Positions 8,718 to 58,355 of a DNA stretch of 64,000 nucleotides are shown here, piece by piece. Made by a program: the position numbers and the translations under genes. Positions within the stretch are counted from its first letter, which is position 1, and every line of letters begins with the position of its first letter. This DNA comes from Nanobdellota archaeon (GTDB lineage: Archaea > Nanobdellota > Nanobdellia > Pacearchaeales > GW2011-AR1): the NCBI GenBank assembly GCA_038045705.1, contig JBBSXO010000006.1:44506-108505 (forward strand). The letters are read 5' to 3'. The notes under the pieces are model-generated. The model was not told the origin of the DNA. It saw only the letters and a list, made by a program, of their open reading frames with translations, and searched no databases.

Positions 8718-8749
8718 AAATCAAAATAATAAAATACCTATTTAAAGAT

Positions 8750-9790: not shown

Positions 9791-9980
9791 ATAACTAATA
9801 AAAATCTCAGAATTATAAGGTTATTCTTTTAGAATGTTTAAGATAGTAATACTTCCTACCATCAACAATTTTAGTAATTATTTTCATAAATCTATTATAC
9901 CTACAAACTACTTAAATTTTGCTATTTTAGCAAAATGTGGGTATAAAGTCTCGCTTTATTTTTACATGCGTTAGCAAATA

Positions 9981-10445: not shown

Positions 10446-10509
10446 AAATAATAATTACATTTAGAATTTATAAGTATTATCTAGAAACAAAACATCTATT
10501 GATAATTTA

Positions 10510-10818
10510 TTATTCCTTAATATCTATCTTAATCTGAACACTTCTTGGAATCTTAAGCATCATTAATGGGCGTAAAACTCTGTCTTGAGCAGGCATGTCA
10601 ATAATTCTTTTATGAACTCTCATTTCAAATCTGTCAAAAGTAGCGGTTCCATTTCCACAGGGGGACTTTCTTGTAGTAACCTTCATGTGTCTTGTTGGTA
10701 GTGGAATAGGACCCCTCATATTAATACCAGATTTATCAGAAAGGTCTTTAATCATTCCAATAACTGAGTTCAACTGACCTATATCTATACTTGATAGTTT
10801 TATTCTTACTACGCCCAT
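10510..10818 (-). CDS. rps10: 30S ribosomal protein S10 (uS10), archaeal type
   Basis: VRIKLSSID...RGPIPLPTRHMKVTTRKSPCGNGTATFDRFEMRVHKRIIDM matches the S10 signature. The start is most likely the internal Met (MGVVRIKL), giving about 102 aa. The ORF-track start at 10866 is probably too long. Confidence 0.8.
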   Translation of the reverse strand: MGVVRIKLSSIDIGQLNSVIGMIKDLSDKSGINMRGPIPLPTRHMKVTTRKSPCGNGTATFDRFEMRVHKRIIDMPAQDRVLRPLMMLKIPRSVQIKIDIKE

Positions 10819-21006: not shown

Positions 21007-21078
21007 GCTCGTCTAGTATATCGGTTAGTACATGGCCCTGTCGCGGCCAAGAGCCGGGTTCGATTCCCGGGACGGGCG
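21007..21078 (+). tRNA. tRNA-Asp (anticodon GTC)
   Basis: Hand-folded. Acceptor GCTCGTC/GACGGGC with discriminator G. D stem GTAT/GTAC. Anticodon stem TGGCC/GGCCA with loop CTGTCGC. T arm CCGGG-TTCGATT-CCCGG. Length 72 nt. Confidence 0.8.
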
Positions 21079-21079
21079 T
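21067..21079 (+). repeat. attL core: 13-bp direct repeat CCGGGACGGGCGT (3' end of tRNA-Asp)
   Basis: Exact 13-mer repeated at 50735-50747. A GC-rich 13-mer in ~30% GC DNA is unlikely to recur by chance. Confidence 0.6.
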
Positions 21080-21161: not shown

Positions 21162-22334
21162 GTGAAACTTGATCCGTATAAACATAAAGAAAGATACATA
21201 GCTTGGAAGAATAAAATAGGTTCGGTTATTCCAGATATTACTATTCAAAATTCCCAGATAATTTTACAATATCTAAACGATATGGAAAGGGGTTTAAATG
21301 TCTCCATATTAAGCCAAAAAGGTCCGAGAAGTTATATTCGCCTTAATTCTTTAAGAGAAAAAATTATAGGATATGCAAAAAAGTTTAATGAATTATATAA
21401 TTTAGAAACAATTACAGATATCTCTGAAGACCAGTTACTTAATTTCTTTGCAGATATGAGAGATGGAGTTATTAAAAGAAAAGATGGTAAGGAGTATCAA
21501 TCTGTGGATACTTCTGCGCGTATATTCAAAGCATTCTGGCATTGGCATCAAAAAGTAAGCAGAAAAAAAGGGATTGAGATAAAAGATATTACCTTAGATC
21601 TAGATACAAAAGCAAAGAAACCTGATTGGGTTTACCTTACTGAAAAAGAGGTCAGGGTATTATGCGATAATGCTAAACCAGACTACAAGGCACTTATAAT
21701 GTTTCTTTTTGATACTGGAATTAGATCTCCTACAGAACTAATGAATGTTAAATTATCTGATTTATTTAATGATTGTAAAGAAGTTAATATTCGCGAAGAA
21801 ACGAGTAAAACATTTGGGAGAAGAGTAAAATTAATGCTATGCTCCGATGCTATACGGGATTATATTGAAAGAAATGGGCTAAAAACCGATGATTATTTAT
21901 TTCCTATAACGCCTGCAAGAGTTAATGAATACTTGAAGAGACTTGCTAAAAGAATTTTTGGAGAAAAAATAACCCCTGCAGGTGCAAAATATTCTGAAAT
22001 TACAATGTATGATTTTAGGCACATAGCATGTTGCTATTGGTTACCACGATATAAGTCAGAATCAGCCCTCAAATATAGATTTGGATGGAGAGATAGTGAG
22101 AAAATCCATTATTATTCAGAATTATTGGGTATGAGTGATACTATCTCTGAAGAAGACATGCTTTTAGATGTTACAAAGACTGAGATTGAAAAGAGTCTAA
22201 AAAAATCAGATCAAGAAAAAGAAATACTAAGTGACAGAGTAAGATCGCTAGAAAAAGAAATATCTGAGATGAAGAAAATATCTTTAGAACTTATAAGAGT
22301 CTCAACACCTAAGAATCAATATTTACTATCTTGA
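21162..22334 (+). CDS. int: tyrosine recombinase / integrase (divergent)
   Basis: Box I DTGIRSPTELMNV (TGLRxxEL-like). Box II YDFRHIACCYWL (LRH). C-terminal ...KIHYYSELLG carries the candidate catalytic Tyr. Lies directly 3' of tRNA-Asp. About 65% identical to the paralog at 50910. Confidence 0.7.
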   Translation: MKLDPYKHKERYIAWKNKIGSVIPDITIQNSQIILQYLNDMERGLNVSILSQKGPRSYIRLNSLREKIIGYAKKFNELYNLETITDISEDQLLNFFADMRDGVIKRKDGKEYQSVDTSARIFKAFWHWHQKVSRKKGIEIKDITLDLDTKAKKPDWVYLTEKEVRVLCDNAKPDYKALIMFLFDTGIRSPTELMNVKLSDLFNDCKEVNIREETSKTFGRRVKLMLCSDAIRDYIERNGLKTDDYLFPITPARVNEYLKRLAKRIFGEKITPAGAKYSEITMYDFRHIACCYWLPRYKSESALKYRFGWRDSEKIHYYSELLGMSDTISEEDMLLDVTKTEIEKSLKKSDQEKEILSDRVRSLEKEISEMKKISLELIRVSTPKNQYLLS

Positions 22335-22604: not shown

Positions 22605-23180
22605 TCAGTGGTTAGTTCTTCCTCTAGAGTCATTATTAAATTTCTTGGTCTCATTGCCCCAGCAGTCCCAACCGCTAAAAGTTTCTCTTGCAAATAATTC
22701 TATTCTAGGTAAATCTCCAAGTAATTCTACAATATTATTTCTTATTTGATCTGGTTTTCTACTATGCTCTCTTAATGGAGAAAGAACAACTTGTCTAACT
22801 CTATTAGATTTTCTGATTAATTTTCCTTTTAATCCTAATAAACATATTTCTGTATTTGCTCGAGTCCAATTACCAAGACCCATAAATGGAAGCCCATCAC
22901 GTTTATTGGTTTTAACCCAAGTAAATGCTACTGTAACATATCTAAAACCCCATTTCTTCAAAGTTTCAATACATTCAGATAAAATTGGGTAAGTTGCCCA
23001 TAAGAAAAGAGCACAGTTTTCATCAGTGATCTGTTGAATTGGGAATTTCTGAATATCTTTAATTGGAACACAAGGATACTTTTTTGTCGCATTTGTTGTA
23101 CTGTATTTCCAGGGAGGATCTGCATAGATAATATTGTATTTTTTATTAATATCTAACTTCCATAAAAAATCTTTTTTCAT
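22605..23180 (-). CDS. orphan N6-adenine DNA methyltransferase, MT-A70 family
   Basis: YNIIYADPPWKY catalytic DPPW motif. Length 191 aa. No cognate endonuclease adjacent. Confidence 0.7.
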   Translation of the reverse strand: MKKDFLWKLDINKKYNIIYADPPWKYSTTNATKKYPCVPIKDIQKFPIQQITDENCALFLWATYPILSECIETLKKWGFRYVTVAFTWVKTNKRDGLPFMGLGNWTRANTEICLLGLKGKLIRKSNRVRQVVLSPLREHSRKPDQIRNNIVELLGDLPRIELFARETFSGWDCWGNETKKFNNDSRGRTNH

Positions 23181-23238
23181 GAAAAGAATCTGTAAAAAGT
23201 CATTATAAAAAATCGGGGACTAACTGGGCGTCTATCTG

Positions 23239-23275
23239 GTCGACTACTTAGATGTCCATTTAGTCGACTAAATGG
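23239..23275. promoter_or_regulatory. operator-like palindrome in divergent promoter region: 20-bp perfect palindrome CCATTTAGTCGACTAAATGG plus upstream GTCGACTA half-site
   Basis: The perfect inverted repeat 23256-23275 is centred on GTCGAC. The half-site GTCGACTA also occurs at 23239-23246. Located between the divergent MTase gene (start 23180) and ORF 23283. Confidence 0.4.
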
Positions 23276-23282
23276 TCTCCGA

Positions 23283-23498
23283 TTGCCTATAAACAATTTA
23301 GATCACAGCACAGACATGAAATTTTGCATTGTATGCGAAGCTGAAACTAAAGAAAGAGAGTTTTGCGAAAATTGTTTGACTTTCATAAAATGGAAGTACG
23401 AAAATAATTTTGAGGAACAGTTAGAAAGATTTCGTAAGCTGAAAGCCTACCTCGAAGATTGGCGTAACCAATCAACTGAAAAGGAGGTGGAAGAATGA
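23283..23498 (+). CDS. small zinc-ribbon protein
   Basis: CIVCEAETKEREFCENC (CxxC...CxxC) in a 71-aa ORF. First gene of a + strand operon with 4-nt overlaps. Confidence 0.3.
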   Translation: MPINNLDHSTDMKFCIVCEAETKEREFCENCLTFIKWKYENNFEEQLERFRKLKAYLEDWRNQSTEKEVEE

Positions 23499-23824
23499 AG
23501 GTACAAAAACTTGTTAGCCTTTTACTTGTTGCATATATTTTTGCTTTGCAGATTGTTAGTGCTCAGTTTAATGGGACAATAACTCAGGAAGAACAGGAGA
23601 CATTTGATACTATACTTGAACCAGTATTAAAAATATACAATTTAGTAAAGTATTCTGCGACTTTTATTGCAGTAATAATGCTTGTATTTGCTGGTATAAG
23701 CTACATAACTAGTGGATCAAATCCTACAAAACGTGAAAGTTCCAAGAATACTATAATGTATGTGTTTATTGGACTTGCAATAATTTGGGCAGCACCTTGG
23801 TTTGTGCAGTTTATAGTTAACTGA
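23495..23824 (+). CDS. candidate conjugative pilin (VirB2/TrbC-like topology)
   Basis: Signal peptide (MKVQKLVSLLLVAYIFALQIVSA), then two hydrophobic helices separated by a short polar loop (GSNPTKRESSKN). Mature size about 85 aa, as in VirB2/TrbC. Confidence 0.3.
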   Translation: MKVQKLVSLLLVAYIFALQIVSAQFNGTITQEEQETFDTILEPVLKIYNLVKYSATFIAVIMLVFAGISYITSGSNPTKRESSKNTIMYVFIGLAIIWAAPWFVQFIVN

Positions 23825-23826
23825 TT

Positions 23827-24228
23827 ATGAAAACTAAATTAACTAAAGCAGTAGGTACTCTTGCAATAGTATTTATGATTCTATTTTTGCTGTTGCAAGA
23901 GGCAACTGCCTGCCCATCGCGTTTGAGATGCTCTAATTTTACTAATATGGATAAAAGAAATGATTGCAACTATATTTGGTCTCAAACATCAGGTGCTGAA
24001 AGACAAGAGGCAGTATGTATTTTATGGGACCAAGAGTATGGATTTCCTGGATACAACCATTCCGTTTATCCTAATGCGGAATCCAATTTTACGTTTTCTC
24101 ATAAAGAAATAGAAACAAGTAGATTTATTTTGTTTTTCAAAATAATTATATTTCTGTTATTTAATTATATCTTGTTTTCCATTCTAACTAAGACTTCATT
24201 CGTTAGAAGATGCCTTCCTGCGGGTTAG
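23827..24228 (+). CDS. secreted Cys-containing protein with C-terminal membrane anchor
   Basis: N-terminal TM/signal, six Cys in the ectodomain, C-terminal hydrophobic helix. Confidence 0.3.
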   Translation: MKTKLTKAVGTLAIVFMILFLLLQEATACPSRLRCSNFTNMDKRNDCNYIWSQTSGAERQEAVCILWDQEYGFPGYNHSVYPNAESNFTFSHKEIETSRFILFFKIIIFLLFNYILFSILTKTSFVRRCLPAG

Positions 24229-25019
24229 TTAATCTTGGAGCTTGTCTCCCAGAGATGTTTTTTAATTTTATTTTTAATTTAATTAATGCTCCTGTTCAAC
24301 CCTTCTTACAAGTAGTTCTTAATTTGCTCTCTGCAGAAGCTCATTTTTCTATCTTCCTTAGTTTATGGGTAATCATTGTTTATATGTTATCAATGTTTTA
24401 CGCATTGCTTATCGTTGGAGTGGGTTTTAGTTTCCTTATCTCTGGCTATGACTTTGAGAAAAGAGAACAGACAAAGGAATGGTTGAGAAACATAATAATT
24501 ATGATAATCTTAATCCAATCCTCATTCTTTATCTACGGGTTAATTATGGATTTAGCTTCCACGATGACTTCTGCAGTTTTAAGTATTGTAAGCCCTAATT
24601 TCTTCAGTTTACAAGTTAGTAGCAGTCTTGGTTTGGGTTTAGCAATAACTTTACTCTTTGTTTATGTAATTACTTTAATTGTTACCATAATTGTCTTAAC
24701 TCTAAGATATGCAATAGTTGCAATAGGAGTAGTTTTATTGCCTATTGGAATTTTCTTCTACTTTCTTTCACCGCTAAGATCTTTTGGTTCATTAATCTTA
24801 AACATATTAGGAATGGCTATATTTATCACATTTTTTGATGCACTTTTACTCATAGGATTTTCTTCATTAATGAATGTTGAAATATTTGATCAGTTTCAAA
24901 TTGTAATTTTAATAACTGCATTTTTGCTAATTGACATCTTAATGGTTGTTCTGTTATTTTTCGCAATAACTAAAGCTGCATTTGGAATTTATGATAAATT
25001 TAGCAGGTGGAAGAAATAA
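24210..25019 (+). CDS. polytopic membrane protein (VirB6/TrbL-like candidate)
   Basis: 269 aa with about 6-7 TM helices. Lies in an operon with the pilin-like gene and the VirB4-like ATPase. Confidence 0.3.
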   Translation: MPSCGLVNLGACLPEMFFNFIFNLINAPVQPFLQVVLNLLSAEAHFSIFLSLWVIIVYMLSMFYALLIVGVGFSFLISGYDFEKREQTKEWLRNIIIMIILIQSSFFIYGLIMDLASTMTSAVLSIVSPNFFSLQVSSSLGLGLAITLLFVYVITLIVTIIVLTLRYAIVAIGVVLLPIGIFFYFLSPLRSFGSLILNILGMAIFITFFDALLLIGFSSLMNVEIFDQFQIVILITAFLLIDILMVVLLFFAITKAAFGIYDKFSRWKK

Positions 25020-25777
25020 TGGCTTATGAAATACCTCAACAACTAGAATACAAAGAGAAAATAATGTTTGGGTTAAATTTTAAGCAATTAGCTTATCTTT
25101 TTATTTTTGCACCAATTCTATTTGTTATTTTTTTTAAGACTGCCTGGCATAATGCAATAAAGATATTTTTTATGTCAATTTTTGGAGGTTTAGCTATAGG
25201 GTTTATCTTTCTTGATTTAGATAAACATCTTCAAAATTGGTTTTACTGGTATAAATCAAAGAAGTTAGAGTTAGATCATAAATTAGCCTTATTCATACCA
25301 ATAAAAGAAGTAAAAGATAGTTTGGTTATAACTAGGGATAATAGGAAACTAGCAATTATCAAGATTACTCCTATTAATTTCTCAATTAAACATGAAGAGT
25401 CTAAGAATGCAATATCAATAGCATTTCAGAAATTTCTCAATGGTTTAGATTTTCCTATACAGATTATAATGAATACTGAACACCTTGATCTACGAGATTA
25501 TTTTGCAGAAGTTGAAAGAAAGATAAAAGACTCCAAACAATTTAGATATTTGTTTGAAGGTTACAAGAGACATCTAGAGTCAATAACTAAAGAAAAAGAT
25601 GTGATGAATAGGGTTTTTTATCTAGTTCTTACAGAAAGAACTGATATTAATATACAATTACAGATTTGTCAGACAAAATTATCTAATATTGGTTTAAAGA
25701 GTTTGAGACTAAAAGATAATGAATTAAAAGAATTGCTTAGAAGATTTTTCTTAGCAAGGAGAAATCATGCTAAGTAA
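25007..25777 (+). CDS. membrane protein with two N-terminal TM helices (VirB3/VirB8-like candidate)
   Basis: Two N-terminal TMs, then a soluble domain. Immediately upstream of, and overlapping, the VirB4-like ATPase gene. Confidence 0.3.
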   Translation: MEEIMAYEIPQQLEYKEKIMFGLNFKQLAYLFIFAPILFVIFFKTAWHNAIKIFFMSIFGGLAIGFIFLDLDKHLQNWFYWYKSKKLELDHKLALFIPIKEVKDSLVITRDNRKLAIIKITPINFSIKHEESKNAISIAFQKFLNGLDFPIQIIMNTEHLDLRDYFAEVERKIKDSKQFRYLFEGYKRHLESITKEKDVMNRVFYLVLTERTDINIQLQICQTKLSNIGLKSLRLKDNELKELLRRFFLARRNHAK

Positions 25778-28076
25778 AAAAGAAAGACCTAAAGAAAATA
25801 CGGAATTTTTACCTTTAAAGATAGAAAACACCCCCAGTTATCTTAAAATAACAGACGGAATAAAAGAACCAATCTTTAGTAGAACAATTTATGCTCATGG
25901 ATATCCTAGAAGTGTAGAAACTGGATTTTTGGACAAAATAATTAGCACAATGGGTAACTTTGATCTTTCTATGCACATTGAACCTTTTGATATAGAAACA
26001 ATGATGATCTTTCTAAACAAAGAACTTCAAAAACAAGGCTCTGACCTCTATACAGCTAAGGCAAAAAACATTCTTAGCCCGAGTCTTGAGATAAAGTACA
26101 AAGACACAAAAGCAGTCTTAGAAAATCTCCAAAAAGGTAAGGATAAATTGTTTAACGTAAGTCTTTACATAAATTGTAGAGCTAAATCTAAAGAAGATCT
26201 GGATCTTTTAACTAAATTAATACAAGCCGAACTTAACTCGCTACTGATAATCCCTAAAGTACCAAATTTTAGGATGGCTCAGGGTTTCCAGTCATCTTCT
26301 CCTTTAGCCATGAATAAACTTAAGCAAATAAGAAGTGTGCCTACTGAAGCATTATCTGCATTCTTTCCGTTTACTTCTTCATTTCTTCAAGCAGATAAAA
26401 CAGGAGTATGGTTAGGGCAAAATAAGAATAATATTCCCATAATAAAGGATATTTTCAATCTAAGTAACCCAAATGGTTTGTGTTTAGCTAGTTCGGGATC
26501 TGGTAAAAGCTATATGGCTAAACTCCTTATTTCACGTTATTTGCTTAATGGAACTAATGTAATGATAATTGACCCGCAAGGTGAGTACAAAGCTCTTGTA
26601 AAGCGATTTAATGGCCAATTAATCGATTTAAGCACGCACTCTGAGACAATAATTAATCCTTTAGATTTGATGGGTCATGACTATCCCGAAAAGCGTTTAG
26701 CTTTAATCGATTTGATGCATCTAATGCTTGGAGATCTTAGCGATCCACAAAAAGCTATTCTAGAAAAGGCAATAACAACATCTTATGAAGAAAGAGGAAT
26801 TTATATGAATAAAGTAGTTTCTTGGAGCAGAAAGCCTCCAATCATTGAAGATGTTCTAAATGTATTGAAGAAAGATGAAAAGAAAGCTACTCAAATAGAA
26901 AAGACTACAATAAGAAGCCTCATAAATCGTCTAGATGGTTATGTAAATGGAGTATTTTCTTTTCTTAATCAGGAAACTAAGATTAACTTTGATAATCAAT
27001 TTGTATGTTTTGATATAGGAAATCTGCCAAAACAAATCAAACCCCTAATGATGTTTATGGTTTTAGATTATATTTACATGAAAATGAAGAAAGACTTGAA
27101 TAGAAAACTCTTGGTTATCGATGAAGCTTGGGCACTTCTAAGGCAAACTCATGAAGCATCTTATGTATTTGAGATAGTAAAAACATGTCGTAAGTTCAAT
27201 CTAGCTTTATTTTTGATTAATCAAGAAGTTGAAGGTATGCTTGATTCAGAAGCGGGTAAATCTGTGTTAGCAAATAGTTCTTACACTCTCTTAATGCGTC
27301 AAAAGCCAGCCGTAATAAGAAATATTCAGAAAACATTTTTTCTAAGTGACTCAGAAGTCAACCATTTACTTACGGCTGGCGTGGGAGAAGGAATTTTGGT
27401 AATGGAGGATGATCATTCTGAAATAAAAATCATAGCTTCTCCTGAAGAACATAATATTATAACTACGAAGCCGGATGAGTTATTAACCAATCAAAAGAAA
27501 GTAAGTGAAAAAGAGCGTCTTCAGCTATTACAAGAACAATATGATTTACGGAAAGAAAAAAGAGACGAAAGACAAAAAATAGAAATAAAGATAGACAAAG
27601 ATGTAGGATGTGTTAAACTAAAAGACATATTAAAAGATGAAGTAAACTACCTCAAAAATTTAGGGTATAAGATTTACAGAAGTAAGAGCATCCTAAGCAA
27701 TAAAACAGAAAGTTATTTGATAGAACAAAAGAAAACAGAAAGCCCGCAACATATTTTTATGGTAAAAGATATTTCAGACTATTTGAAAAAGTTTACAGAT
27801 AAGGTTAGAATATATGAAACTGTGCAACCAGATATAGTTTTCGAGATAAATGAAAAGAAATATGCTATTGAAGTGGAAACAGGTAGTTTATTAAAATCAA
27901 ATAAAAAAGCATTGAAAGATAAAATAGAATTACTAAATAAAAAATATAAAGATAGATGGTTTTTTGTCGTAACTAATAGAAATATTGCATCAAAATATTC
28001 AGAATTAGGTAAAACTTATGATAAAAGATATATTAATACATTATTAAAACGCTTAATTGTAGAAAATAGCCAGTGA
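25767..28076 (+). CDS. VirB4/TrbE-like conjugative transfer ATPase with C-terminal PD-(D/E)xK nuclease-like extension
   Basis: Walker A LASSGSGKSY. Walker B LLVIDEAWALL about 205 aa later. VirB4-type LFLINQ...SYTLLMRQ motif. A C-terminal ~200 aa carries PDIVFEINEKKYAIEVETGS (D...ExE/K pattern). Confidence 0.55.
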   Translation: MLSKKERPKENTEFLPLKIENTPSYLKITDGIKEPIFSRTIYAHGYPRSVETGFLDKIISTMGNFDLSMHIEPFDIETMMIFLNKELQKQGSDLYTAKAKNILSPSLEIKYKDTKAVLENLQKGKDKLFNVSLYINCRAKSKEDLDLLTKLIQAELNSLLIIPKVPNFRMAQGFQSSSPLAMNKLKQIRSVPTEALSAFFPFTSSFLQADKTGVWLGQNKNNIPIIKDIFNLSNPNGLCLASSGSGKSYMAKLLISRYLLNGTNVMIIDPQGEYKALVKRFNGQLIDLSTHSETIINPLDLMGHDYPEKRLALIDLMHLMLGDLSDPQKAILEKAITTSYEERGIYMNKVVSWSRKPPIIEDVLNVLKKDEKKATQIEKTTIRSLINRLDGYVNGVFSFLNQETKINFDNQFVCFDIGNLPKQIKPLMMFMVLDYIYMKMKKDLNRKLLVIDEAWALLRQTHEASYVFEIVKTCRKFNLALFLINQEVEGMLDSEAGKSVLANSSYTLLMRQKPAVIRNIQKTFFLSDSEVNHLLTAGVGEGILVMEDDHSEIKIIASPEEHNIITTKPDELLTNQKKVSEKERLQLLQEQYDLRKEKRDERQKIEIKIDKDVGCVKLKDILKDEVNYLKNLGYKIYRSKSILSNKTESYLIEQKKTESPQHIFMVKDISDYLKKFTDKVRIYETVQPDIVFEINEKKYAIEVETGSLLKSNKKALKDKIELLNKKYKDRWFFVVTNRNIASKYSELGKTYDKRYINTLLKRLIVENSQ

Positions 28077-28191: not shown

Positions 28192-29760
28192 TTAAATTAC
28201 AGTAAATTCAAAAGCATCAGAAATAGAAACTACATTACCATTAGAGTCTAAAGTAACAAATGATGTATAAAAGGTAGAATTGCTTAGAGAAGGAATATTA
28301 GGTATTGCTAAGGTAACTTTAGATTGATTGATTCTCAATCTTCCAATAGAATTATATAAACCAATACTTTGGGGATTAGTTAAAGATGTTTGTAATAAAG
28401 GGGTGTTGTCTAAAGGAGTTATTCTTCCATCAGGCAGTGTAACTCCTTGGGAAATATTTGTAGACATTCCTAAAACATAATTTGCTTTAAGGTCGTAAGA
28501 TTCCTGTAATAAGAAGTTAACGCTTGATCCAACTCTTGGACTTCCAAGCATAACAATATTAGAAGGATTAAGAGATCTCTGGTATTTTACTCTTGCAGTT
28601 CTATATTGACCTTCATGCCATACTATATGTATATTTCCTTGTCTATCTGAAGCAAATTTTGGCGAATAAATTTGTCCTGCTCCCATAATAGTTGGACCAA
28701 TAATAATATTTCCAAGAGAATCTAATTGGCTAAATACTCTGCCTTGTCCAAATATACCTATACGCCCAAGAGAGTTAACTACGATTCCATCATTTCCAAC
28801 ATTTGGTAAAACTAATTTCTTATTTATTAAAAATGTACCATTGCTGTTTATTTTAGATAAATAGATACCAGAAGCATTATTATAATCAGAATTCCAAGAA
28901 AAGATAACATTATTTTGTTTATCGATTGCAATTGCTGGATAATCAGAGCCACCCATACCAATATCTAATTGAGAACCATTTATTAGTACATTTCCGAACT
29001 GATCTATGTAAGAATACTTAACATGAGCAACCCTGCTAGTAGAATTAGCAACAAACTCTTCCATCCACATCAAATAAGAAAAACCATTATTATCTGTAGC
29101 TAGCTTAATAACTAAAGGTTCGAAAATGCCTGCATTATAGACAGAATATATTGGAACTAAAAGATTACCTTGATTGTCGAACTTTCCATAGTAAACATCA
29201 TGATCTCCGCGCCAAGCGACATTTATGTTTCCGAGATTATCAACAGATAACTGCGGGTCTCCAGTTCCACTTCCAGGCAATAAAACTCCATTTACTGCAA
29301 TAGTACCATTAGCATAAAGCCGTGTATATCTAGTACCATGAAGAGTACTTCCAATCAAATCATACATCCATACAATATGAATATTATCAAATTTATCCAC
29401 AGCAATTGAAGAGAAGAATCCATAAGTGCTATTAAAATTGGTTAATTGTTGGTTACTAATAATTGTATTTCCAAATTTATCTAATTTGGTATAAAATACT
29501 TCTCCGATGATATTTGACAATTTTTGCATCCAAATAATATGCACGTTCCCTTGAGAATCTGTAGCTATAGATGGGTCTGCTGCAGTTAAAGTCAAATTAA
29601 GTAGAGAAATTAGAGATTCATTACTCCAATGTATTTGGGGTTCAATAGCTGAAGCTGGGGAAAGCAGAGGATAAGATGTAAAAAATCCTATTGCAACTAA
29701 AATAAAAATTAATGCTACCAGATTCTTATTTTTCTTCATAAAACTCCAGAAATTAATCAT
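28192..29760 (-). CDS. secreted beta-propeller-like repeat protein
   Basis: Signal/anchor, then at least six roughly 45-50-aa repeats with core D-x-x-G-N-[IV]-H-[IV]-x-W (DSQGNVHIIW, DKFDNIHIVW, DNLGNINVAW, DKQNNVIFSW, DRQGNIHIVW). Confidence 0.4.
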   Translation of the reverse strand: MINFWSFMKKNKNLVALIFILVAIGFFTSYPLLSPASAIEPQIHWSNESLISLLNLTLTAADPSIATDSQGNVHIIWMQKLSNIIGEVFYTKLDKFGNTIISNQQLTNFNSTYGFFSSIAVDKFDNIHIVWMYDLIGSTLHGTRYTRLYANGTIAVNGVLLPGSGTGDPQLSVDNLGNINVAWRGDHDVYYGKFDNQGNLLVPIYSVYNAGIFEPLVIKLATDNNGFSYLMWMEEFVANSTSRVAHVKYSYIDQFGNVLINGSQLDIGMGGSDYPAIAIDKQNNVIFSWNSDYNNASGIYLSKINSNGTFLINKKLVLPNVGNDGIVVNSLGRIGIFGQGRVFSQLDSLGNIIIGPTIMGAGQIYSPKFASDRQGNIHIVWHEGQYRTARVKYQRSLNPSNIVMLGSPRVGSSVNFLLQESYDLKANYVLGMSTNISQGVTLPDGRITPLDNTPLLQTSLTNPQSIGLYNSIGRLRINQSKVTLAIPNIPSLSNSTFYTSFVTLDSNGNVVSISDAFEFTVI

Positions 29761-29778
29761 ATTTAAAGCCTATTATCT

Positions 29779-30150
29779 TCAAGGTATTGTATAAAATCCT
29801 CTACCGTCTACATCTAAATCGCCAAAGGGATCAGGGTGGAAAGCTATTGTTCTTGTTTCCATTTCTGTGTTAATATCATCTCTTATTGCTACATCTAAGT
29901 CTGTAATTCGATTGACCGTTCCTCTAAATTGTCTTTCACACTTTCCCGCTTCTAAAATTGCTATGTAATTAGTATACCCATCTTCTGAATATATTTTATA
30001 AGCATAATCAACATCAATTATTCCATTAGCTTGGCATCTTGGGTTTATAGTTATATTAGCGCTTGGTTGTGCTTGAACTGCAATTATTGTCACTCCTATA
30101 AATAATATCATTCCTAAAAAATATAGTATTTGATTTTTCATAATGGACAA
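29779..30150 (-). CDS. small secreted protein
   Basis: Signal peptide MSIMKNQILYFLGMILFIGVTIIAVQA. Length 123 aa. Confidence 0.3.
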   Translation of the reverse strand: MSIMKNQILYFLGMILFIGVTIIAVQAQPSANITINPRCQANGIIDVDYAYKIYSEDGYTNYIAILEAGKCERQFRGTVNRITDLDVAIRDDINTEMETRTIAFHPDPFGDLDVDGRGFYTIP

Positions 30151-31826
30151 ACTCCTGCCGTGTTATCTATCCAAGACAGACCCCCGTTGTTGCAATAGAC
30201 TAACGCTTGATTAGTAGTAGGAGTTTTATTTAAAGGTACCCATGCAGTTGAGTTCCAATAAATTACACTTCGATTCACTCTAGTCCATTGGCTTTCAACA
30301 GTTAGAGATTTATTTAAGCAATTTCCACCAGTTACACAAATATCTTTTGTATTGTTTAGTGGATTCCTCAATGCAATTTTATAACTATCTAAGTATGTAG
30401 AAGCTACATTATCTTGAGCATTTAATTCTAATGTTTGTTGCGCAACATTATTTGTGAATACCCAATTACCTGTAAAAGAAGCATTACCTAAAGATAGTTG
30501 AGAATTTGCAGTATCAGTAGGTAATATGTATAATCCGTTTGCTATTCCTCCTACATTAAGAGTTCCATTTCCACCAGTCATTTTTATCAGCGGAATTCCA
30601 AATATTGATACAAGCGTTGTTGTTACATCAAATGTAGTTGCAGAAAGTGCTACACCAGCTTGTGAATCATCTAATCTTAATTTTTTTCCAAATATTCTAT
30701 CTAAAACTGTTAAATCTTGTGTAGAGAAGTTTAATCCAACGTAAGAAGAAGCATTTACAACTCCGTTAACTATAACTGATCCATTAACATGAAATTTTTC
30801 CTGAGGGTTAACAGTTCCAATGCCAACTTTTCCATCGCTTTTCCATGACATTATTCCGTTTAATTGACTTCCACTACGATTGTTGGATACATCTAGTTTC
30901 AAAAGACCAACCCCAGGATGATTAACAAATGCATAAGTCAATGGATTAAGCTCATTTATAGCTCCAGACAATAGTAAAGTTGCAGCACCATCTGCTATCT
31001 GTGAACCAGTAAATCCAGTATGGCCTCCCATTATATTAAGAGTTCCCCTTCCATTAGTGCCGTTTCCAGCAATTAATATCTGAGAACGAATATCAGTTCC
31101 CTCGTTAGTTGTAACCTTTATGCCCCCAGTAGCATTTCCATTCCATATAGTTAATATATGATCTGGAGTTGTAAGACCAATTCCTATTTTTGAACCACTT
31201 TGAAAAATAGCAGAACTATTCAAACCAGTAGTAGAATTCCATCTAGAAATATATCCAGAAATCCCTTGACCAGTTAAAGTTCCCGTAGAAGGAAGATTTG
31301 TTAATTGTGATCCGTCACCAATAAAGTATGGAGAGGTAACTCTTTCGGAAAAGTATCCTGATTTAGCGCTAACATTGTTAGTAATATTTATGTTCTTTCT
31401 ATTCTCTGAGAAAAGAAGGTTGTCGCTTTCATTAATTGCCCAAATAATATTACCTTTTATTACTCTTATAACTAAATCTCCCGTCTGAGCAATGGAAGAG
31501 TAATGCCCTGCAGCTAAAGCAAGCCCTAAGTTAGCAAGAATGCTCGTCTCGTTCTTAAAACCAAGAGCAGGAGAATTTGATTGTGCTTGCGCACCAGCTA
31601 TTGTAAGACCCTCACCAGGTCTTTGAACATTTATGCTATGATAATTTGAAGTCATATTTTCAGCTGTGAAGTTTCCGTTGCGGAAAATAATATTTCCAGC
31701 AGAAACAGATGTAATGAAGAAAGACAGAATAAGAAGAGAAATAATAGATTTTAATCCATTCCCCTTCATATACGGAAGTGTCTTCTCATATTTATATATG
31801 TTGTGTTTAAAATATGACATTTTCAT
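30138..31826 (-). CDS. secreted G/N/T-rich fibre-like protein
   Basis: N-terminal TM anchor. Low-complexity Gly/Asn/Thr/Ser-rich beta-rich sequence of 562 aa. Confidence 0.35.
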   Translation of the reverse strand: MKMSYFKHNIYKYEKTLPYMKGNGLKSIISLLILSFFITSVSAGNIIFRNGNFTAENMTSNYHSINVQRPGEGLTIAGAQAQSNSPALGFKNETSILANLGLALAAGHYSSIAQTGDLVIRVIKGNIIWAINESDNLLFSENRKNINITNNVSAKSGYFSERVTSPYFIGDGSQLTNLPSTGTLTGQGISGYISRWNSTTGLNSSAIFQSGSKIGIGLTTPDHILTIWNGNATGGIKVTTNEGTDIRSQILIAGNGTNGRGTLNIMGGHTGFTGSQIADGAATLLLSGAINELNPLTYAFVNHPGVGLLKLDVSNNRSGSQLNGIMSWKSDGKVGIGTVNPQEKFHVNGSVIVNGVVNASSYVGLNFSTQDLTVLDRIFGKKLRLDDSQAGVALSATTFDVTTTLVSIFGIPLIKMTGGNGTLNVGGIANGLYILPTDTANSQLSLGNASFTGNWVFTNNVAQQTLELNAQDNVASTYLDSYKIALRNPLNNTKDICVTGGNCLNKSLTVESQWTRVNRSVIYWNSTAWVPLNKTPTTNQALVYCNNGGLSWIDNTAGVCPL

Positions 31827-34800
31827 ATAATCCTCCAGTTAAGCAAAGATTTCCGTTAAAGTCAATGTAACTCATATTGTATCCAGTTAAATTCTGTATG
31901 AGAAAAGAATCTCTTATAGGATTACATGAACTTATCATATCTGAACAGGTTCCAGATTCTAAGCACATATTACCAGTAGTGTCAATGTAAGCTGTAGAGC
32001 TATCTGTAGAATTTCCGATAACCAAAGAACCGTTAGGTGCAACGCAGTTGCTTGATATCGAACAAGTACCTTTAAGAGCAATATTGCCCCAGTCTCCTAA
32101 CCATGCAACATTTGATGCAGTTGAGTCTTGTATTAGAAATTTATTAGTGTCATTTCTCATTGGATTAAGAGTTACAGAATTAGAGGGAGAGTAATAAGCC
32201 GAGTAAGTATTGCTTCCATTAACATCTATCGATCTGCATGAGAAAATAACTGGGTATTCTGGAGCGATGGAATTAAAGTTCCAATTTAACGTTTGACTAG
32301 CCGTATGATTTCCTATACTATGGAATGCTAAATCATAAAATGCATTTATATTATAAGTGATATTATCATTTTCAGCATCGGTAGACCCAGAACAGTTGAG
32401 ATTCATGCTATAATAAAAAGTATTTGTTGAACATGCAGCACCATTACAAAGAAGAGAAGTTGGAGTAGTTGGAGGAGTATTGTAAGTGCAGTTAAGACTA
32501 CAACTTCCAGTACCAGCAACAACACCATTACACTGACTGTCTGCTGTACATCCAGTAGCAAAACTTGAAGATCTACAAACATTGTCTCCCCTATCTTCTC
32601 CACTAGCACTAGAAGAACATTTATCTGCAAAATAAGTTAGAGCACTAGCACAGGTTGTTATATTACTGCCTGAAGAAAGTCCATCACATAATGGTTGTGC
32701 ACAAGAACATCCAGTTTCTCCACATTCAAAGACTGAAGTTACATCCTGATAACCACATACACTACTACATTCTTCTTCATAATAAGAAATTCCAGAACAC
32801 AAATTCAAATCATCTCCTGTTTGTCGTTCATCACAACTAGATATTCCTAAAGTAGTAGAAAATTCGCAATAATTTGTTTCCTGACTGTCAAAATAGCCAT
32901 TATACGGACTAAAACACCAACCATCATCACTTAAACCAACACCATCATTATCACAAAAGTTTGATTGACATTGAGCACTAGAAGTGCAAGATTGCCCATT
33001 GGATAAATCAGAAACACAACTCCAAGTATTCCAGCTACCAGATTTATTACAAAATTGATTTGAAGCACAGTCACTATTACTATAGCAATTCAAAACATAA
33101 ATGTAAGGGTTATTTGTATATGAAGGGTTAAATGGATCAAAACCAGTGGTACACCAATAAGATGAAGTGTCATCGTAACCTATAATCTCTTCAAAGTGTG
33201 CTGTTGCAGGAGCATTAGTTACATTTATCACGCCCTGATTGCCCGATAGTGGATTTCCACCACAGCCACCAGAACCACAACTACTTGGATTAATATCATA
33301 ATAAACATCTTGAGCATCAACTGCTTTCCAACCAACTTTATAATTTCCTATAGTATAGGGGTCACTATTATCAACTACTTGTCCCCAAGAAATGTTATTT
33401 ACATTACTATACACATTTATAGCAACAGTTACATCACAATTTCCAAAACTATTAGTTGTACAATATTCATAACCTGGCTCCGTACATGTAGAATTTCCAC
33501 CACCAGCGCCACTACAAGAAGCATCATTAACACATCTTGTCTGCGCATTACAACCTGAAGGAGTACAAGTTCTTGTTTCTAATCTTTGACCCTCTCCACA
33601 TCCCCCTCCACCACAAGAACCAGAAACCCAGTTACTACATTGACAACTTGAACTAAGAACACTAACCCATATAGGATTTGTATAAGTTCTATAAGTTCCC
33701 CCAGATCCAATGCATTCAGCCCTAAAATATGTATCTCCAGGATTTGCAAGAGCTAGATTGGGCAAAGTAATGGGGCTTGAACTGCCACTGATATTAACGG
33801 GTCCATAATGAGTCAATTCAAGATTACTCCCAATTGTTGATTTGTAAACTCTAAGAGTACATGAATGATCTAAATCATAAGTTATCCTCATATTCAAAAT
33901 ATCATTGGTATTTGCACTAACTTCTCCACCCATTTGAGTCCATGTTGATTGAGAATTCTTTTTTGCTTCTATTATAACATATCCATTATTAGACACAACA
34001 TTCGTTCCAGCAGCTAAAGCAGATTGAATATTAGAATGGGTGATGGTGGAAGCTGGAACATAGTTATAATTTATGTCAGAAACATGTCCATGTTCATCGG
34101 TGCCCCCATATGCATAAACGCGCTCATCTTGTTGCAAGAGATTATACCATGCATTAAAATTATCAGCATCATCATCAAGGCTATCAGAAGTGAAATTTCC
34201 ATTCCAAATTTCAACCCCATCATATCCCGAAACAGAATATATTGATTCAAAATCAAGAAAAGTAGTGGTGCTGGATGAAGGATGAGGGTGATTAAGAATG
34301 GAGATACCACCTTGGCTAGCAATAGAATTAACTCCGCTTTGAGCAGATGGGCCCGAAGGGCAATGAACTGCAGAAGGTGTTTGAGATATCAAACTGCTTA
34401 GCCCATATCCTCCAATATGAGCCTCTCCTGGACCAGTTGAACCAGTATAACAACTAAAAAGATTTTCATTATCCCCAGAAATATCCTGAGTGCTTAATTC
34501 TTCTCCCATAAGACAAGTAAATGTACTATTTCGGGCATTCACACAATCATTTCTTACTGTACCAAACTCACCAGCATCAATACAATAACTGTGATCTGAA
34601 AATCCAAGATAATCTAGTCCTAAATTTGCAGCTTCATCTGCTAATTCTTGAACTTCATAACCTATCAAATGTCCTTCAAGACCTATGGGGAGGCAGTTAT
34701 CTGAATTTGTAAATGGATTGCTATCATATCCACCCACTGTGCTAAATCCAGTATGTTGATGTAGACTCCCTTTATAAAAATTAATTGCCAAACCATCCTC

Positions 34801-34857
34801 AGAAAACAAGATCACTGTAAGAATAATAAAAATAAAGACGACATAATTTATCTTCAT
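31807..34857 (-). CDS. secreted PHP-domain phosphoesterase fused to a ~700-aa Cys-rich extracellular region
   Basis: Signal peptide. PHP motifs SLHQHTGFS, LGFSDHS, GEELS and ILNHPHP in the first ~200 aa. Over 60 Cys in CxxC/CxC arrays thereafter. Length 1016 aa. Confidence 0.45.
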   Translation of the reverse strand: MKINYVVFIFIILTVILFSEDGLAINFYKGSLHQHTGFSTVGGYDSNPFTNSDNCLPIGLEGHLIGYEVQELADEAANLGLDYLGFSDHSYCIDAGEFGTVRNDCVNARNSTFTCLMGEELSTQDISGDNENLFSCYTGSTGPGEAHIGGYGLSSLISQTPSAVHCPSGPSAQSGVNSIASQGGISILNHPHPSSSTTTFLDFESIYSVSGYDGVEIWNGNFTSDSLDDDADNFNAWYNLLQQDERVYAYGGTDEHGHVSDINYNYVPASTITHSNIQSALAAGTNVVSNNGYVIIEAKKNSQSTWTQMGGEVSANTNDILNMRITYDLDHSCTLRVYKSTIGSNLELTHYGPVNISGSSSPITLPNLALANPGDTYFRAECIGSGGTYRTYTNPIWVSVLSSSCQCSNWVSGSCGGGGCGEGQRLETRTCTPSGCNAQTRCVNDASCSGAGGGNSTCTEPGYEYCTTNSFGNCDVTVAINVYSNVNNISWGQVVDNSDPYTIGNYKVGWKAVDAQDVYYDINPSSCGSGGCGGNPLSGNQGVINVTNAPATAHFEEIIGYDDTSSYWCTTGFDPFNPSYTNNPYIYVLNCYSNSDCASNQFCNKSGSWNTWSCVSDLSNGQSCTSSAQCQSNFCDNDGVGLSDDGWCFSPYNGYFDSQETNYCEFSTTLGISSCDERQTGDDLNLCSGISYYEEECSSVCGYQDVTSVFECGETGCSCAQPLCDGLSSGSNITTCASALTYFADKCSSSASGEDRGDNVCRSSSFATGCTADSQCNGVVAGTGSCSLNCTYNTPPTTPTSLLCNGAACSTNTFYYSMNLNCSGSTDAENDNITYNINAFYDLAFHSIGNHTASQTLNWNFNSIAPEYPVIFSCRSIDVNGSNTYSAYYSPSNSVTLNPMRNDTNKFLIQDSTASNVAWLGDWGNIALKGTCSISSNCVAPNGSLVIGNSTDSSTAYIDTTGNMCLESGTCSDMISSCNPIRDSFLIQNLTGYNMSYIDFNGNLCLTGGLYENVIF

Positions 34858-35303
34858 TTCCTATCCTCATAAATCTTCCAAATTAAGGCTAGCGCCGAAA
34901 AAATTAATAAAGAAATCCCTACAAAATAAGCCATCCTGAGATTAGAACTTGCTTCAAGCAAAAATCTCGAAAAATTGGAATTCAAAGCAACTCCTATGGG
35001 CCAAAATGAAGTAGCAATTACACTGATTAAAATAAGTTCTTTACTTTCATCTTTAGCTCTTTTTAATAAAATTAAGAGTATCCATGGAAGAATCAACCAA
35101 AATATCAAATTTACTATTAATACTTCTGGAATAATAATTAAAGATTCACCACCTCTAGTTCCAAAAACTGTTTGAGAAATTAGAGTTGCAATTAATCCTG
35201 GAATGAATGTCACTAAAATCACTAAATCGCTCTTTGAAAATAAAAATCCTGCTAAAATAAAAATAAATGCACAGCACAAAACCAGATAAATTTTATTCTT
35301 CAT
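34854..35303 (-). CDS. membrane protein, hypothetical
   Basis: 149 aa, four TM helices, co-transcribed with the surface proteins. Confidence 0.3.
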   Translation of the reverse strand: MKNKIYLVLCCAFIFILAGFLFSKSDLVILVTFIPGLIATLISQTVFGTRGGESLIIIPEVLIVNLIFWLILPWILLILLKRAKDESKELILISVIATSFWPIGVALNSNFSRFLLEASSNLRMAYFVGISLLIFSALALIWKIYEDRK

Positions 35304-35306
35304 TTA

Positions 35307-36977
35307 TCAAATAACCTCCATTATGTGTTCTGTAGAGATTTGACGTTCCTCTCCCAAGTAGTTGTAATCTAAAGTTATATTTATCCACTCATCATTTCCA
35401 ACAGTGAAATCCCCATAGAATATTTCCTCATATCTTATCCTTATTTTTTCCACATAAACGTTTAGGGTAGGTTCAGTAAGATTAAACTCAAATCCTTGTT
35501 CGATAGATAAATCTTTATTGAAGTAGAGACTTCCGTTTGAAATGTAGATGCTTAAATTTCCTAGCTCAATAACATCATTAAGGTAAATGCTATGGCTAAC
35601 AACAATAGTTCTATTATGATCAACATGATTAACAGTGTAACTGGATATATCATGCTCTAAGGACACATTAATACCAACTGCAATTGTTCTATTTTCACTC
35701 CAAGTTCCTTGAGAACTATTGTCGTAAGCCAAGAAAGAGTATGTATAGTTTCCTTCCGAGATGTTAGCTAAAACAAATGTCGTAAAATTAGTTGCTCCAG
35801 TTAAAATTACAGTTTCTTCTAATTGCCAACTACCTCCAGTATTAGAATATAAAGAGATATTGGTCAAAACATAATCATCTGTAACATTCGGAGTCAAAAA
35901 TAAATAACCATCCCCATCTAAATAGTTATCTTCTGGAGAGAGAGTAATATATCTTGGAGCAGTGTCTCCTTGTTCTGTAACCGTTAATAGGATCTCACTA
36001 TCACCTACACCATTATCAGAGTCATATACATAGAATGTAATATATTCTGAACCGTACCAGTTAGTTTCCGAAGTTAAGGTTACTATTCCAGAGGTTTCAT
36101 CTACTTCTGCAGATATGTGGTCTGAAGAACTAGCATTATAAGTTAGCTCATCGCTGTCAGAATCTGAAGAGTACTCACTAAGATTAACTACTTTCAATGA
36201 ATCTTCGCCCCAAGTTTGTGAAGACAGTTCAGAAAATACAGGAAGAGGATTTTGAACTGCTATAGTTCTATTTACCGTAGACCATGCAGAGTTAGGAGAA
36301 GAAGCAAAATCATAGCAGATAATATTCCATTTAAATGTAAGATCATTAGGGACATTATTTAACTCAAAAGTCTGTGAAATATTTTTAATAACAAAATAAT
36401 TAGTCTGATTCGCAGCCCAAGTTCCACTCATATTGGTATAAAGACTACAATTTACTATCCACCCATCGTCATCAACACTATAATTTAATTGTAATGTTCT
36501 ATCAGTTGAATTAAATCCATTGGACGGACCTTCAATGTTCACCACAGGGGGAGTGGTGTCATTGAACACGTCAAAAACTCTTGCTTCAGACTGGCTAATA
36601 TTTCCATCCGACCAAGAACAATTAACACTCCAACTATATTCATCATTTTGAAGATTATTTAGATAAAAATAATTTGTTGAGGAACTACTAATATTAATTT
36701 CAGTTTGATTTATTATACCATCAAAAATAAAGCTACAATTATCCATAGTATAAGAAGAATTAGTAATTATATAAGAAAATGCTACATTTCCATCAAATTC
36801 TACAGATCCATTTTCAGGAGTTTGAAGTTCAACAATATAACCATAACCACCACTAGTACCTTGAGCACTAACAAAAAAGAAAAACAAAAAGACTAATACT
36901 AATAAAATAGAAAAAGTGGAAAAAATCATAAAATATTGATTAATTATATTGAACCTTTTAAGATTTCCTTTCACCAT
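35307..36977 (-). CDS. secreted N/S/T-rich surface protein (probable Ig/fibronectin-like repeats)
   Basis: N-terminal TM/signal FSTFSILLVLVFLFFFFVSAQG. 556 aa with many NxS/T sequons. Confidence 0.35.
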   Translation of the reverse strand: MVKGNLKRFNIINQYFMIFSTFSILLVLVFLFFFFVSAQGTSGGYGYIVELQTPENGSVEFDGNVAFSYIITNSSYTMDNCSFIFDGIINQTEINISSSSTNYFYLNNLQNDEYSWSVNCSWSDGNISQSEARVFDVFNDTTPPVVNIEGPSNGFNSTDRTLQLNYSVDDDGWIVNCSLYTNMSGTWAANQTNYFVIKNISQTFELNNVPNDLTFKWNIICYDFASSPNSAWSTVNRTIAVQNPLPVFSELSSQTWGEDSLKVVNLSEYSSDSDSDELTYNASSSDHISAEVDETSGIVTLTSETNWYGSEYITFYVYDSDNGVGDSEILLTVTEQGDTAPRYITLSPEDNYLDGDGYLFLTPNVTDDYVLTNISLYSNTGGSWQLEETVILTGATNFTTFVLANISEGNYTYSFLAYDNSSQGTWSENRTIAVGINVSLEHDISSYTVNHVDHNRTIVVSHSIYLNDVIELGNLSIYISNGSLYFNKDLSIEQGFEFNLTEPTLNVYVEKIRIRYEEIFYGDFTVGNDEWINITLDYNYLGEERQISTEHIMEVI

Positions 36978-37472
36978 TTATTTTATGATTGAGAATTCTG
37001 CCGAAGAAATAGAATCTGCATCAGCAGTTATACCCTTCAACTCAACTGTAATATCCTCCTTACCATCTTTATCTAGATCTATCTCATAAGTATTTCCTTC
37101 ATCTAAAATGAAAGAAAGAGCTATTTGCTCATCGTCAACATAATTGTTTAGACCATCTTCTAAGTCTAAAATTATGAAAGTTGGACCTTCTTTTCTCACT
37201 CCTTTATACTGAAGCCCATACCAATTACCATTAAATTCAAACTTTAACCTTCCAGGCTTCATATTGAAAGAATTGTCCTGTCCCAAAATAATCTCTGAAA
37301 CTGGAACGGCTGCACCACCAAACCCGGAATTAGATAATTCAGGCATAACAGCAACAATATCTAGTTCTTCACCTGAAGAGTTTACTGAATTCAGAAAGAT
37401 AAATATAACCAAGAAAAAGAGAAGACTGAAAAAAAGTACAAATGACTTAATTTTCATAAAACTCACTAGCAA
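36978..37472 (-). CDS. small secreted protein
   Basis: Signal peptide, 164 aa, first gene of the minus-strand surface-protein cluster. Confidence 0.3.
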   Translation of the reverse strand: MLVSFMKIKSFVLFFSLLFFLVIFIFLNSVNSSGEELDIVAVMPELSNSGFGGAAVPVSEIILGQDNSFNMKPGRLKFEFNGNWYGLQYKGVRKEGPTFIILDLEDGLNNYVDDEQIALSFILDEGNTYEIDLDKDGKEDITVELKGITADADSISSAEFSIIK

Positions 37473-50734: not shown

Positions 50735-50747
50735 CCGGGACGGGCGT
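50735..50747 (+). repeat. attR core: 13-bp direct repeat CCGGGACGGGCGT
   Basis: Identical to tRNA-Asp positions 21067-21079. An imperfect inverted copy ACGCCCTGCCCGGGC lies at 50823-50837. Confidence 0.55.
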
Positions 50748-58271: not shown

Positions 58272-58355
58272 GCTAATAATCTGATACCTAACTATTTAAA
58301 TTTTACGATAAATCGGTAGACCGATTTTCTAGATATAATATGAGTTATACCTCAA

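Follow-up and report, generated by a model that had tools for sequence, protein, structure and literature searches.

A nuclease-like domain fused to the VirB4-like ATPase of tRNA-integrated type IV secretion elements in DPANN archaea

Archaeal conjugation systems have seemed to lack a DNA-cutting enzyme, and a locus in a DPANN archaeon raises the question of whether such an enzyme could be built into the transfer motor itself. The locus lies in a 64,000-nucleotide stretch of DNA from a Nanobdellota archaeon (contig JBBSXO010000006.1, positions 44,506 to 108,505 of the forward strand; this whole stretch is called the window throughout). At 25767..28076 (+) the window contains a complete gene, an uninterrupted open reading frame (ORF) of 769 amino acids (aa), that codes for a VirB4-like ATPase with a C-terminal nuclease-like domain that we call NUC. 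The protein is 100% identical to the public entry P0170, which is annotated as 'DUF87 domain-containing protein [Nanoarchaeota archaeon]'. An earlier note on this DNA had proposed that some 200 aa beyond the ATPase core carry a PD-(D/E)xK nuclease-like signature of the Hjc/Mrr type. The analysis presented here points to a nuclease fold of a new family at this position, and VirB4-NUC provides a concrete and testable candidate for the enzyme that has seemed to be missing.

The C-terminal domain of the VirB4-like ATPase

Residues 1 to ~565 (25767..27461, +) constitute a VirB4/TraC-type P-loop ATPase region, as indicated by Pfam and NCBIfam matches together with intact Walker A (ASSGSGKS, from residue 241; 26487-26510, +) and Walker B (LLVIDE, from residue 448; 27108-27125, +) motifs. 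Pfam P-loop_TraG was matched with 87.4 bits (cutoff 25.8), DUF87 and AAA_10 were matched as well, and the NCBIfam model conju_CD1110 gave E=4e-87 with 293 bits, which is below its 325-bit equivalog cutoff. These profile scores make the protein VirB4-like but do not qualify it as a CD1110 equivalog. The assignment is also consistent with co-encoded components of a type IV secretion system (T4SS), specifically a VirB2 pilin, a VirB3 and a VirB6, the last recognized by position and hydrophobicity only. The NCBIfam models conju_CD1110, Mbov_0397, TraC and VirB4 all stop at residues 547-571, and the ~205 aa that follow (nt 27459-28073) have no match in Pfam, NCBIfam, PHROGs, PADLOC or PDB sequences. 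The proposed extension is confirmed in that curated VirB4/TraC profiles end before the NUC domain.

An AlphaFold2 (AF2) model of the 205-aa extension (pLDDT 87.3) displays a nuclease-type fold, in agreement with the earlier proposal, and a model of the domain only, made with a 34-sequence alignment, has the same anatomy (pLDDT 92.5, pTM 0.87). AF2 secondary structure and the alignment place a long charged helix at residues 581-603 (27507..27575, +) that joins the ATPase to the nuclease-like module. A similar charged stretch is present in stand-alone relatives, where it lies between a transmembrane (TM) segment and the NUC domain. A small β-α-β-β subdomain (residues 615-653; 27609..27725, +), with conserved L621, L629 and Y634, is always located ahead of the core and may have a role in DNA binding or specificity. 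The core itself (residues 656-766; 27732..28064, +) is modeled as a restriction-endonuclease-like PD-(D/E)xK fold that runs α1-β1-β2-β3-α2-β4 (656-735) and closes with two more helices and one short strand. DSSP applied to the two AF2 models assigns, in extension numbering, a helix at 96-109, strands at 116-118, 126-130 and 133-140, a helix at 149-163 and a strand at 167-171, which is the α-β-β-β-α-β core topology of PD-(D/E)xK enzymes. Structural similarity to solved members of this superfamily was also found, with modest scores; Hjc/Hje and VRR-NUC were among the best structural matches and many of the top ones were type II restriction endonucleases or CRISPR-ancillary nucleases.

We next explored which residues of the extension are conserved. 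A search with the extension alone returned 22 homologues, and a profile search of 1.84 billion representatives returned 685 clusters at E≤1e-3 (251 of these at E≤1e-30), defining an unannotated protein family of 685 clusters at 50% identity. Conservation was scored over 170 sequences, comprising the window protein, its 22 close homologues and another 147 representatives taken from a library with clustering at 50% identity. No substitution occurs at H662 (167/167 sequences covering the column), D689, E702, E704 or G706. K719 is retained in 166/170 (R in 3) and E658 in 158/166, and each of F692, A700, T705, W731, F733 and Y744 is retained in at least 93%. The acidic residues highlighted by the earlier note are thus fully conserved among homologues. 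Mapped onto the fold, E658 and H662 (motif E-S-x-x-H; 27738..27752, +) open helix α1, P688-D689 (27828..27833, +; P in 147/170) directly precede strand β2 as the 'PD' of the motif, E702-V-E704-T-G (27870..27884, +) ends β3, and K719 (27921..27923, +) is located in helix α2, 15 residues past E704. The overall NUC signature reads E-S-x-x-H ... P-D-h-h-F ... A-h-E-h-E-T-G ... K ... W-F-F-V-V-T ... Y. The string quoted by the earlier note, YETVQPDIVFEINEKKYAIEVETGSLLKSN (residues 683-712, nt 27813-27902), spans the central portion of this signature and did not arise by chance.

The PD-(D/E)xK assignment stands for the Asp that opens strand 2 and for the acidic residue E702 of strand 3, but not for the Lys of the canonical (D/E)-x-K motif, since the β3 motif is E-V-E with Glu704 in 170/170 sequences at the Lys position. 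An E-x-E motif occurs in BamHI, and in Cfr10I and NgoMIV a catalytic residue has moved to the following helix, so K719 is a candidate for a relocated catalytic Lys. The arrangement differs from that of NgoMIV, Cfr10I and Bse634I, which have S-x-K on the strand and a Glu on the helix, whereas NUC has E-x-E on the strand and a Lys on the helix, a presumed equivalence. E658 and H662 of helix 1, D689 at the start of strand 2, E702-x-E704 of strand 3 and K719 of the next helix would cluster in space to form a putative metal site. Taken with the AF2 models, these results support the assignment of residues ~609-766 to a new, DPANN-specific family of the PD-(D/E)xK fold that has an E-x-E variant of strand 3.

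The likeness to Hjc and Mrr fared less evenly. Hjc is among the best structural matches, as noted above; however, the Hjc E-D-E-K tetrad is broken in NUC (K to E) and an hhalign comparison of the NUC family with Sulfolobus Hjc (sequence identical to 1hh1_A) gave a non-significant E=0.075, and by sequence NUC is not an Hjc-type Holliday junction resolvase. In that alignment, which is not significant alone, PD689 falls on PD42 of Hjc, E702 on E55, E704 on K57 and WFFVV on strand 4. Relative to Hjc/Hje (PDB 1hh1, 1ob8, 1gef), NUC has Glu704 in place of catalytic Lys57, an additional invariant His662, Lys719, an added N-terminal subdomain and C-terminal helices, and has either an ATPase fused to it or an integrase as its partner. 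Nor is an Mrr-type endonuclease supported, as no Mrr family appears in the Pfam matches of the window protein (E≤1) or in the top 25 families of 34 members scanned singly (E≤0.5). Only two Pfam families, CoiA_nuc (4/34, best E=2e-4) and AHJR-like (4/34, best E=6e-3), were matched by more than two of these members, all at or below cutoffs. Both families have the PD-(D/E)xK fold, and neither was matched by the window's own protein in Pfam. CoiA_nuc is the best, borderline match. All four members fall below its gathering score; one stand-alone member reached 20.2 bits against a cutoff of 20.3. CoiA is found in Bacillota only, includes a zinc finger and is a protein separate from its helicase, in contrast to NUC, which in T4SS-type elements is fused to the motor. 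As judged from these sequence comparisons, NUC is in no curated family and is not a member of Hjc, Mrr, CoiA or the MOB_C relaxases considered below.

Fused and stand-alone NUC proteins in integrated elements

To define the range of NUC, one genome per GTDB species was surveyed with the peptide pattern WFFV[VLI]T[ND][RK][NK] as seed, which favours closer relatives, and the ORFs of all survey loci were searched with the domain hidden Markov model and with the window's neighbouring proteins. This gave 74 loci, nearly all in metagenome-assembled genomes (MAGs) of Woesearchaeota, Pacearchaeota and Nanoarchaeota; a few loci labelled Methanosarcinales, Gammaproteobacteria or Babeliales are probably mis-binned contigs. 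No NUC relatives were found in IMG/VR viral contigs, and a viral origin is rejected on this basis. Of the 120 VirB4 homologues that are closest (≥64% identical), the NUC domain is present in 114, and at least 3 of the 6 exceptions end within the ATPase or within the domain. The loci fall into two layouts, and the full catalytic signature is intact in 45 of 49 fused and 22 of 24 stand-alone proteins, with the misses being conservative variants. In a rough nearest-neighbour comparison, fused and stand-alone NUC domains mostly group by type.

In the first, T4SS-type layout (49 loci), NUC is fused to VirB4. The gene order, read where the flank sufficed (pilin gene in range in 31/49 loci, integrase in 13/49), is integrase, sometimes an MT-A70 methyltransferase gene on the opposite strand, a zinc-ribbon ORF, a VirB2-type pilin, a membrane protein of at least 130 aa, a polytopic protein in VirB6 position and VirB3-VirB4-NUC. 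This order is kept in all loci that have the pilin region in range. Most relatives have VirB3, VirB4 and NUC as a single polypeptide of ~970-1030 aa; the VirB3-like part is split off in the window and in L006-L010, which are its closest relatives. A subclade (L034, L035, L045) has the VirB3-VirB4-NUC gene split at another point.

The second layout is that of small islands (7-10 kb), with 24 complete genes for a NUC protein of 160-360 aa, 13 of which have 1-2 N-terminal TM segments and 11 of which have none. The NUC gene is located directly after, and often overlaps, an integrase gene of the window-integrase family in 14 of the 24; in L001 it follows a different integrase. The L005 integrases are 57-59% identical to that of the window. 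L005 has two integrase+NUC modules (654-2700 and 8671-10714) that are 8 kb apart on one contig, with integrases 97.7% identical to each other and ordinary-looking genes between them, and this may represent tandem islands or a composite arrangement. Several genomes have more than one copy, and CAZETU01 and CAZKON01 hold both types of element; as the source MAGs are incomplete, a missing T4SS-type element in a small-island genome means little.

When neighbouring ORFs were clustered, the integrase and NUC were the only recognized backbone genes common to both types. One further cluster common to both is a reverse-transcriptase-like ORF of ~360 aa (RVT_1 in L001:10989-12068, -), convergent with NUC and located a median of 119 nt past it in 13 loci (5 T4SS-type, 8 small islands). 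This ORF, which could be a diversity-generating retroelement, retron-type or group II intron reverse transcriptase, is not present in the window. A separate oddity is the 338-aa protein P0004 (L011:9596-10612), in which an unrelated N-terminus precedes the last ~90 residues of the VirB4 ATPase and an intact NUC; its gene resembles a VirB4-NUC gene that decayed or was rearranged but has kept the nuclease part.

The window locus has the hallmarks of an integrated element. A tRNA-Asp gene (21007-21078, +) precedes a tyrosine integrase (21162..22334, +; Pfam Phage_integrase) of the same family as the integrases that precede stand-alone NUC genes. A 13-nt direct repeat, CCGGGACGGGCGT, which consists of the last 12 nt of tRNA-Asp plus one, forms the candidate left attachment core at 21067-21079 (+), and its sole further copy in the window (50735..50747, +) is the candidate right end. 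The repeat is short, and we provisionally take it to delimit an element of ~29.7 kb (~21.07-50.75 kb). It carries the T4SS operon, genes for large secreted proteins and an assortment of accessory genes, among them NUDIX, histidine phosphatases, radical SAM, CYTH, DUF4238 and HEPN. When the longer ORFs from 21 to 50.7 kb were scanned with Pfam, neither a relaxase nor a type IV coupling protein was recognized, in departure from what is expected of an ICE (integrative and conjugative element). By its sequence, the window element has the integrase next to a tRNA, the distant direct repeat of the tRNA 3' end as att site and the T4SS of an ICE, and is without a recognizable relaxase or coupling protein.

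The order tRNA-Asp, integrase, T4SS, VirB4-NUC is also found in L041, L042, L045, L049 and L074, and small islands are located downstream of tRNA-Ser (L037), tRNA-Gly (L057) and tRNA-Ala (L076). Repeats in the same register, at the acceptor-stem end, give ~6.9 kb in L057, ~10.5 kb in L076 and ~14.7 kb in L074; these are 12-15 nt long and the boundaries are provisional. Across this family of mobile elements, which integrate at tRNA genes, NUC belongs to the backbone. At the candidate right end of the window element, the second copy of the tRNA-Asp 3' end is closely followed by another integrase of this family (50910-52082), which heads a type I restriction-modification island (region 50735-61100) with hsdM (52317-53813), a HEPN protein, hsdS (54666-55820) and hsdR (58356-61100). 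This suggests that two elements are integrated in tandem at one tRNA. The second island has no NUC gene, and an obligatory pairing of integrase and NUC is rejected.

Literature searches of incomplete coverage turned up no earlier account of a VirB4-nuclease fusion or of DPANN elements of this kind, and an earlier description elsewhere is possible. The nearest report is the disputed restriction-endonuclease claim for SPEARE proteins, considered below. What we rate as novel is the joining of a T4SS motor and a nuclease of a new family in one protein. These integrated T4SS elements form a family that had not been described before in Woesearchaeota, Pacearchaeota and Nanoarchaeota, where gene exchange is poorly understood.

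A possible role for NUC in DNA transfer

The sections above establish for NUC its fold, the conservation of its residues, its architectures and synteny, and its taxonomic range; a catalytic activity, a substrate and a role in transfer are inferred. We propose, at about even odds, that NUC acts as a metal-dependent DNase on the cytoplasmic side of the T4SS and nicks or cuts the excised element for transfer. Specifically, in T4SS-bearing elements the helical stalk that fuses NUC to the VirB4 C-terminus would hold this DNase at the cytoplasmic mouth of the T4SS, where it would nick or cleave the circle of the excised element, giving a transferable substrate. In small islands NUC is a protein on its own, in many cases anchored in the membrane, and its gene comes straight after that of the integrase. 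Because NUC is fused to VirB4 a physical coupling to the translocation machinery is indicated, and since the two are fused in some elements and separate in others NUC likely works physically with VirB4. A DNase that makes the transfer substrate appears to be the most economical reading, given that an excised circle needs processing and that no relaxase is recognizable. The split and fused forms can also serve as a natural experiment in the coupling of a nuclease to a DNA pump. A bolder version, which we consider possible but doubtful, is that NUC is the missing enzyme of DNA processing in an archaeal conjugation system, a relaxase analogue of restriction-endonuclease fold built into VirB4, that the T4SS-type elements are the first recognized self-transmissible family in DPANN archaea, and that the small islands are mobilisable 'hitchers' that have their own nuclease and use a helper's T4SS.

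The proposed function would be analogous to that of restriction-endonuclease-type MOB_C relaxases or of HerA-NurA. The MOB_C relaxases TraX of pAD1 and MobC of CloDF13 are PD-(D/E)XK-type enzymes of conjugative DNA processing for which no covalent protein-DNA intermediate has been observed, and MOB_C relaxases are encoded by conjugative and by mobilisable elements (PMC12857230), an occurrence that parallels the fused (T4SS-type) and stand-alone (small-island) forms of NUC. However, MOB_C relaxases are bacterial, are separate from VirB4 and are partnered with a coupling protein, whereas NUC is fused to VirB4. A tblastn search of the NUC domain against 72,556 plasmids returned no match at E≤1, homology to MOB_C was rejected, and the resemblance would be one of functional analogy only. 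HerA-NurA has been proposed to make single-stranded DNA for archaeal DNA transfer as a relaxase surrogate (Beltran et al., PMC9905601). HerA-NurA and VirB4-NUC are alike in combining a motor of the FtsK/HerA/VirB4 superfamily with a nuclease, and differ in that NurA is a separate protein with an RNase H fold while NUC has a restriction endonuclease fold and is fused. A VirB4/TraG-like ATPase domain also occurs in the giant SPEARE proteins of Nanohaloarchaeota, another DPANN lineage, for which a restriction-endonuclease claim was later rejected (PMC10266531). SPEARE proteins are giant surface proteins of other lineage and architecture, and in contrast the NUC assignment is backed by structure prediction and residue conservation.

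Several other roles have to be weighed against processing of the transfer substrate. NUC could be a nuclease of recombination intermediates, either a Holliday-junction or D-loop resolvase or an accessory of the tyrosine integrase, that acts at excision and integration or after DNA entry. Such a role would fit the presence of Hjc/Hje and VRR-NUC among the best structural matches, the weak AHJR-like and CoiA_nuc matches and the location of the small-island NUC gene directly after, and often overlapping, the integrase gene. It would also have precedent in CoiA (with RadA) and YraN (with ComM), which are PD-(D/E)XK endonucleases that work with a motor helicase ATPase on incoming, horizontally transferred DNA, CoiA having an atypical catalytic sequence (bioRxiv 10.1101/2024.02.06.579203), and NUC would be paired with an ATPase in like manner. 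We nevertheless regard this role as rather unlikely, in view of the unconserved Hjc tetrad, of the second window integrase of the same family that has no NUC partner, and of the constant fusion to a T4SS motor, which it leaves unexplained. Moreover, tyrosine recombinases resolve their own Holliday junctions and need no nuclease to do so. That NUC is instead a catalytically dead module of restriction endonuclease fold, kept for DNA binding or protein docking, we consider very improbable; four acidic or His residues are invariant at canonical catalytic positions across the 170 sequences, as expected for a catalytic site.

A defensive role is unlikely in our assessment. Here NUC, located at the membrane or the T4SS, would serve exclusion or defence by degrading incoming DNA that is foreign or comes from competing elements, or would act as the restriction partner of the MT-A70 methyltransferase encoded nearby in the window, and its restriction-enzyme fold, the many type II restriction endonucleases and CRISPR-ancillary nucleases among its top matches, and the N-terminal TM segments of 13 of 24 stand-alone forms are all congruent with this. 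On the other hand, only 7 of 49 fused loci and no small island have MT-A70, and a restriction-modification pairing with it is rejected as a general explanation, while high conservation and a fixed backbone position by the integrase would be unusual for defence cargo. The ATPase part does weakly match the PADLOC mad8 and HerA models, yet the match (E=3e-20) is confined to the ATPase, is far weaker than that to VirB4, and leaves NUC without a PADLOC match; MADS-type defence is rejected for this reason. We judge it quite improbable that the apparatus is a DNA importer of the Ced/Ted kind, with NUC processing or degrading imported DNA for nucleotide salvage in nucleotide-auxotrophic symbionts. The hosts are DPANN archaea, and the minimal set of a VirB2 pilin, VirB6-like protein, VirB3 and VirB4 with no recognized coupling protein or relaxase fits the composition of Ced/Ted, which have a minimal VirB2, VirB6 and VirB4 set (PMC9905601). 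However, Ced/Ted are chromosomal importers of Crenarchaeota with no fused nuclease or integrase, whereas the genes described here are on integrase-bearing, tRNA-inserted elements with att-type repeats that are multi-copy in several genomes, and a selfish element needs export. The small integrase+NUC islands are, in addition, without import machinery.

Neighbouring genes and sequence elements of the window

The T4SS operon that includes VirB4-NUC starts with a 60-aa ORF with a zinc-ribbon-like CxxC...CxxC pattern (23316..23498, +) that slightly overlaps the pilin gene and has matches at E≤3.4e-4 in 23 related loci. This ORF is located upstream of the pilin gene wherever a pilin gene was detected, and may code for a regulator or DNA-binding accessory of the transfer operon. 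It is followed by the VirB2/TrbC-type pilin (23495..23824, +; Pfam T4SS_pilin E=5e-13, TrbC E=2e-8), a 133-aa Cys-containing membrane or secreted protein that is kept in the closest relatives (23827..24228, +), a hydrophobic, probably polytopic protein in VirB6 position that has no family match and is kept in T4SS-type relatives (24210..25019, +), and a PrgI/VirB3-like membrane protein (25007..25777, +; Pfam PrgI) that overlaps the start of VirB4 by 11 nt.

Upstream of the operon is the accessory gene for the MT-A70 family DNA adenine methyltransferase (22605..23180, -; Pfam), and between the two lies a conserved 70-nt non-coding element (23213..23282). Invariant inverted flanks, TCGGGGAC and GTCTCCGA, surround repeats of ~12 nt and a perfect 20-bp palindrome, CCATTTAGTCGACTAAATGG. 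Seven T4SS-type loci have the element at this position, in each case upstream of the pilin operon, and its inner stems show some compensatory changes; neither it nor another shared cis element was found in small islands. We speculate that it is a candidate operator or transfer-origin-like site.

Within the putative element, a series of large secreted or surface proteins (522, 123, 562, 1016, 149, 556 and 164 aa) is encoded on the opposite strand at 28192-37472 (-), converging on the VirB4-NUC gene. These proteins have weak, sub-threshold matches to beta-propeller, Ig-like and cadherin-like families, and could be adhesins for cell-cell contact.

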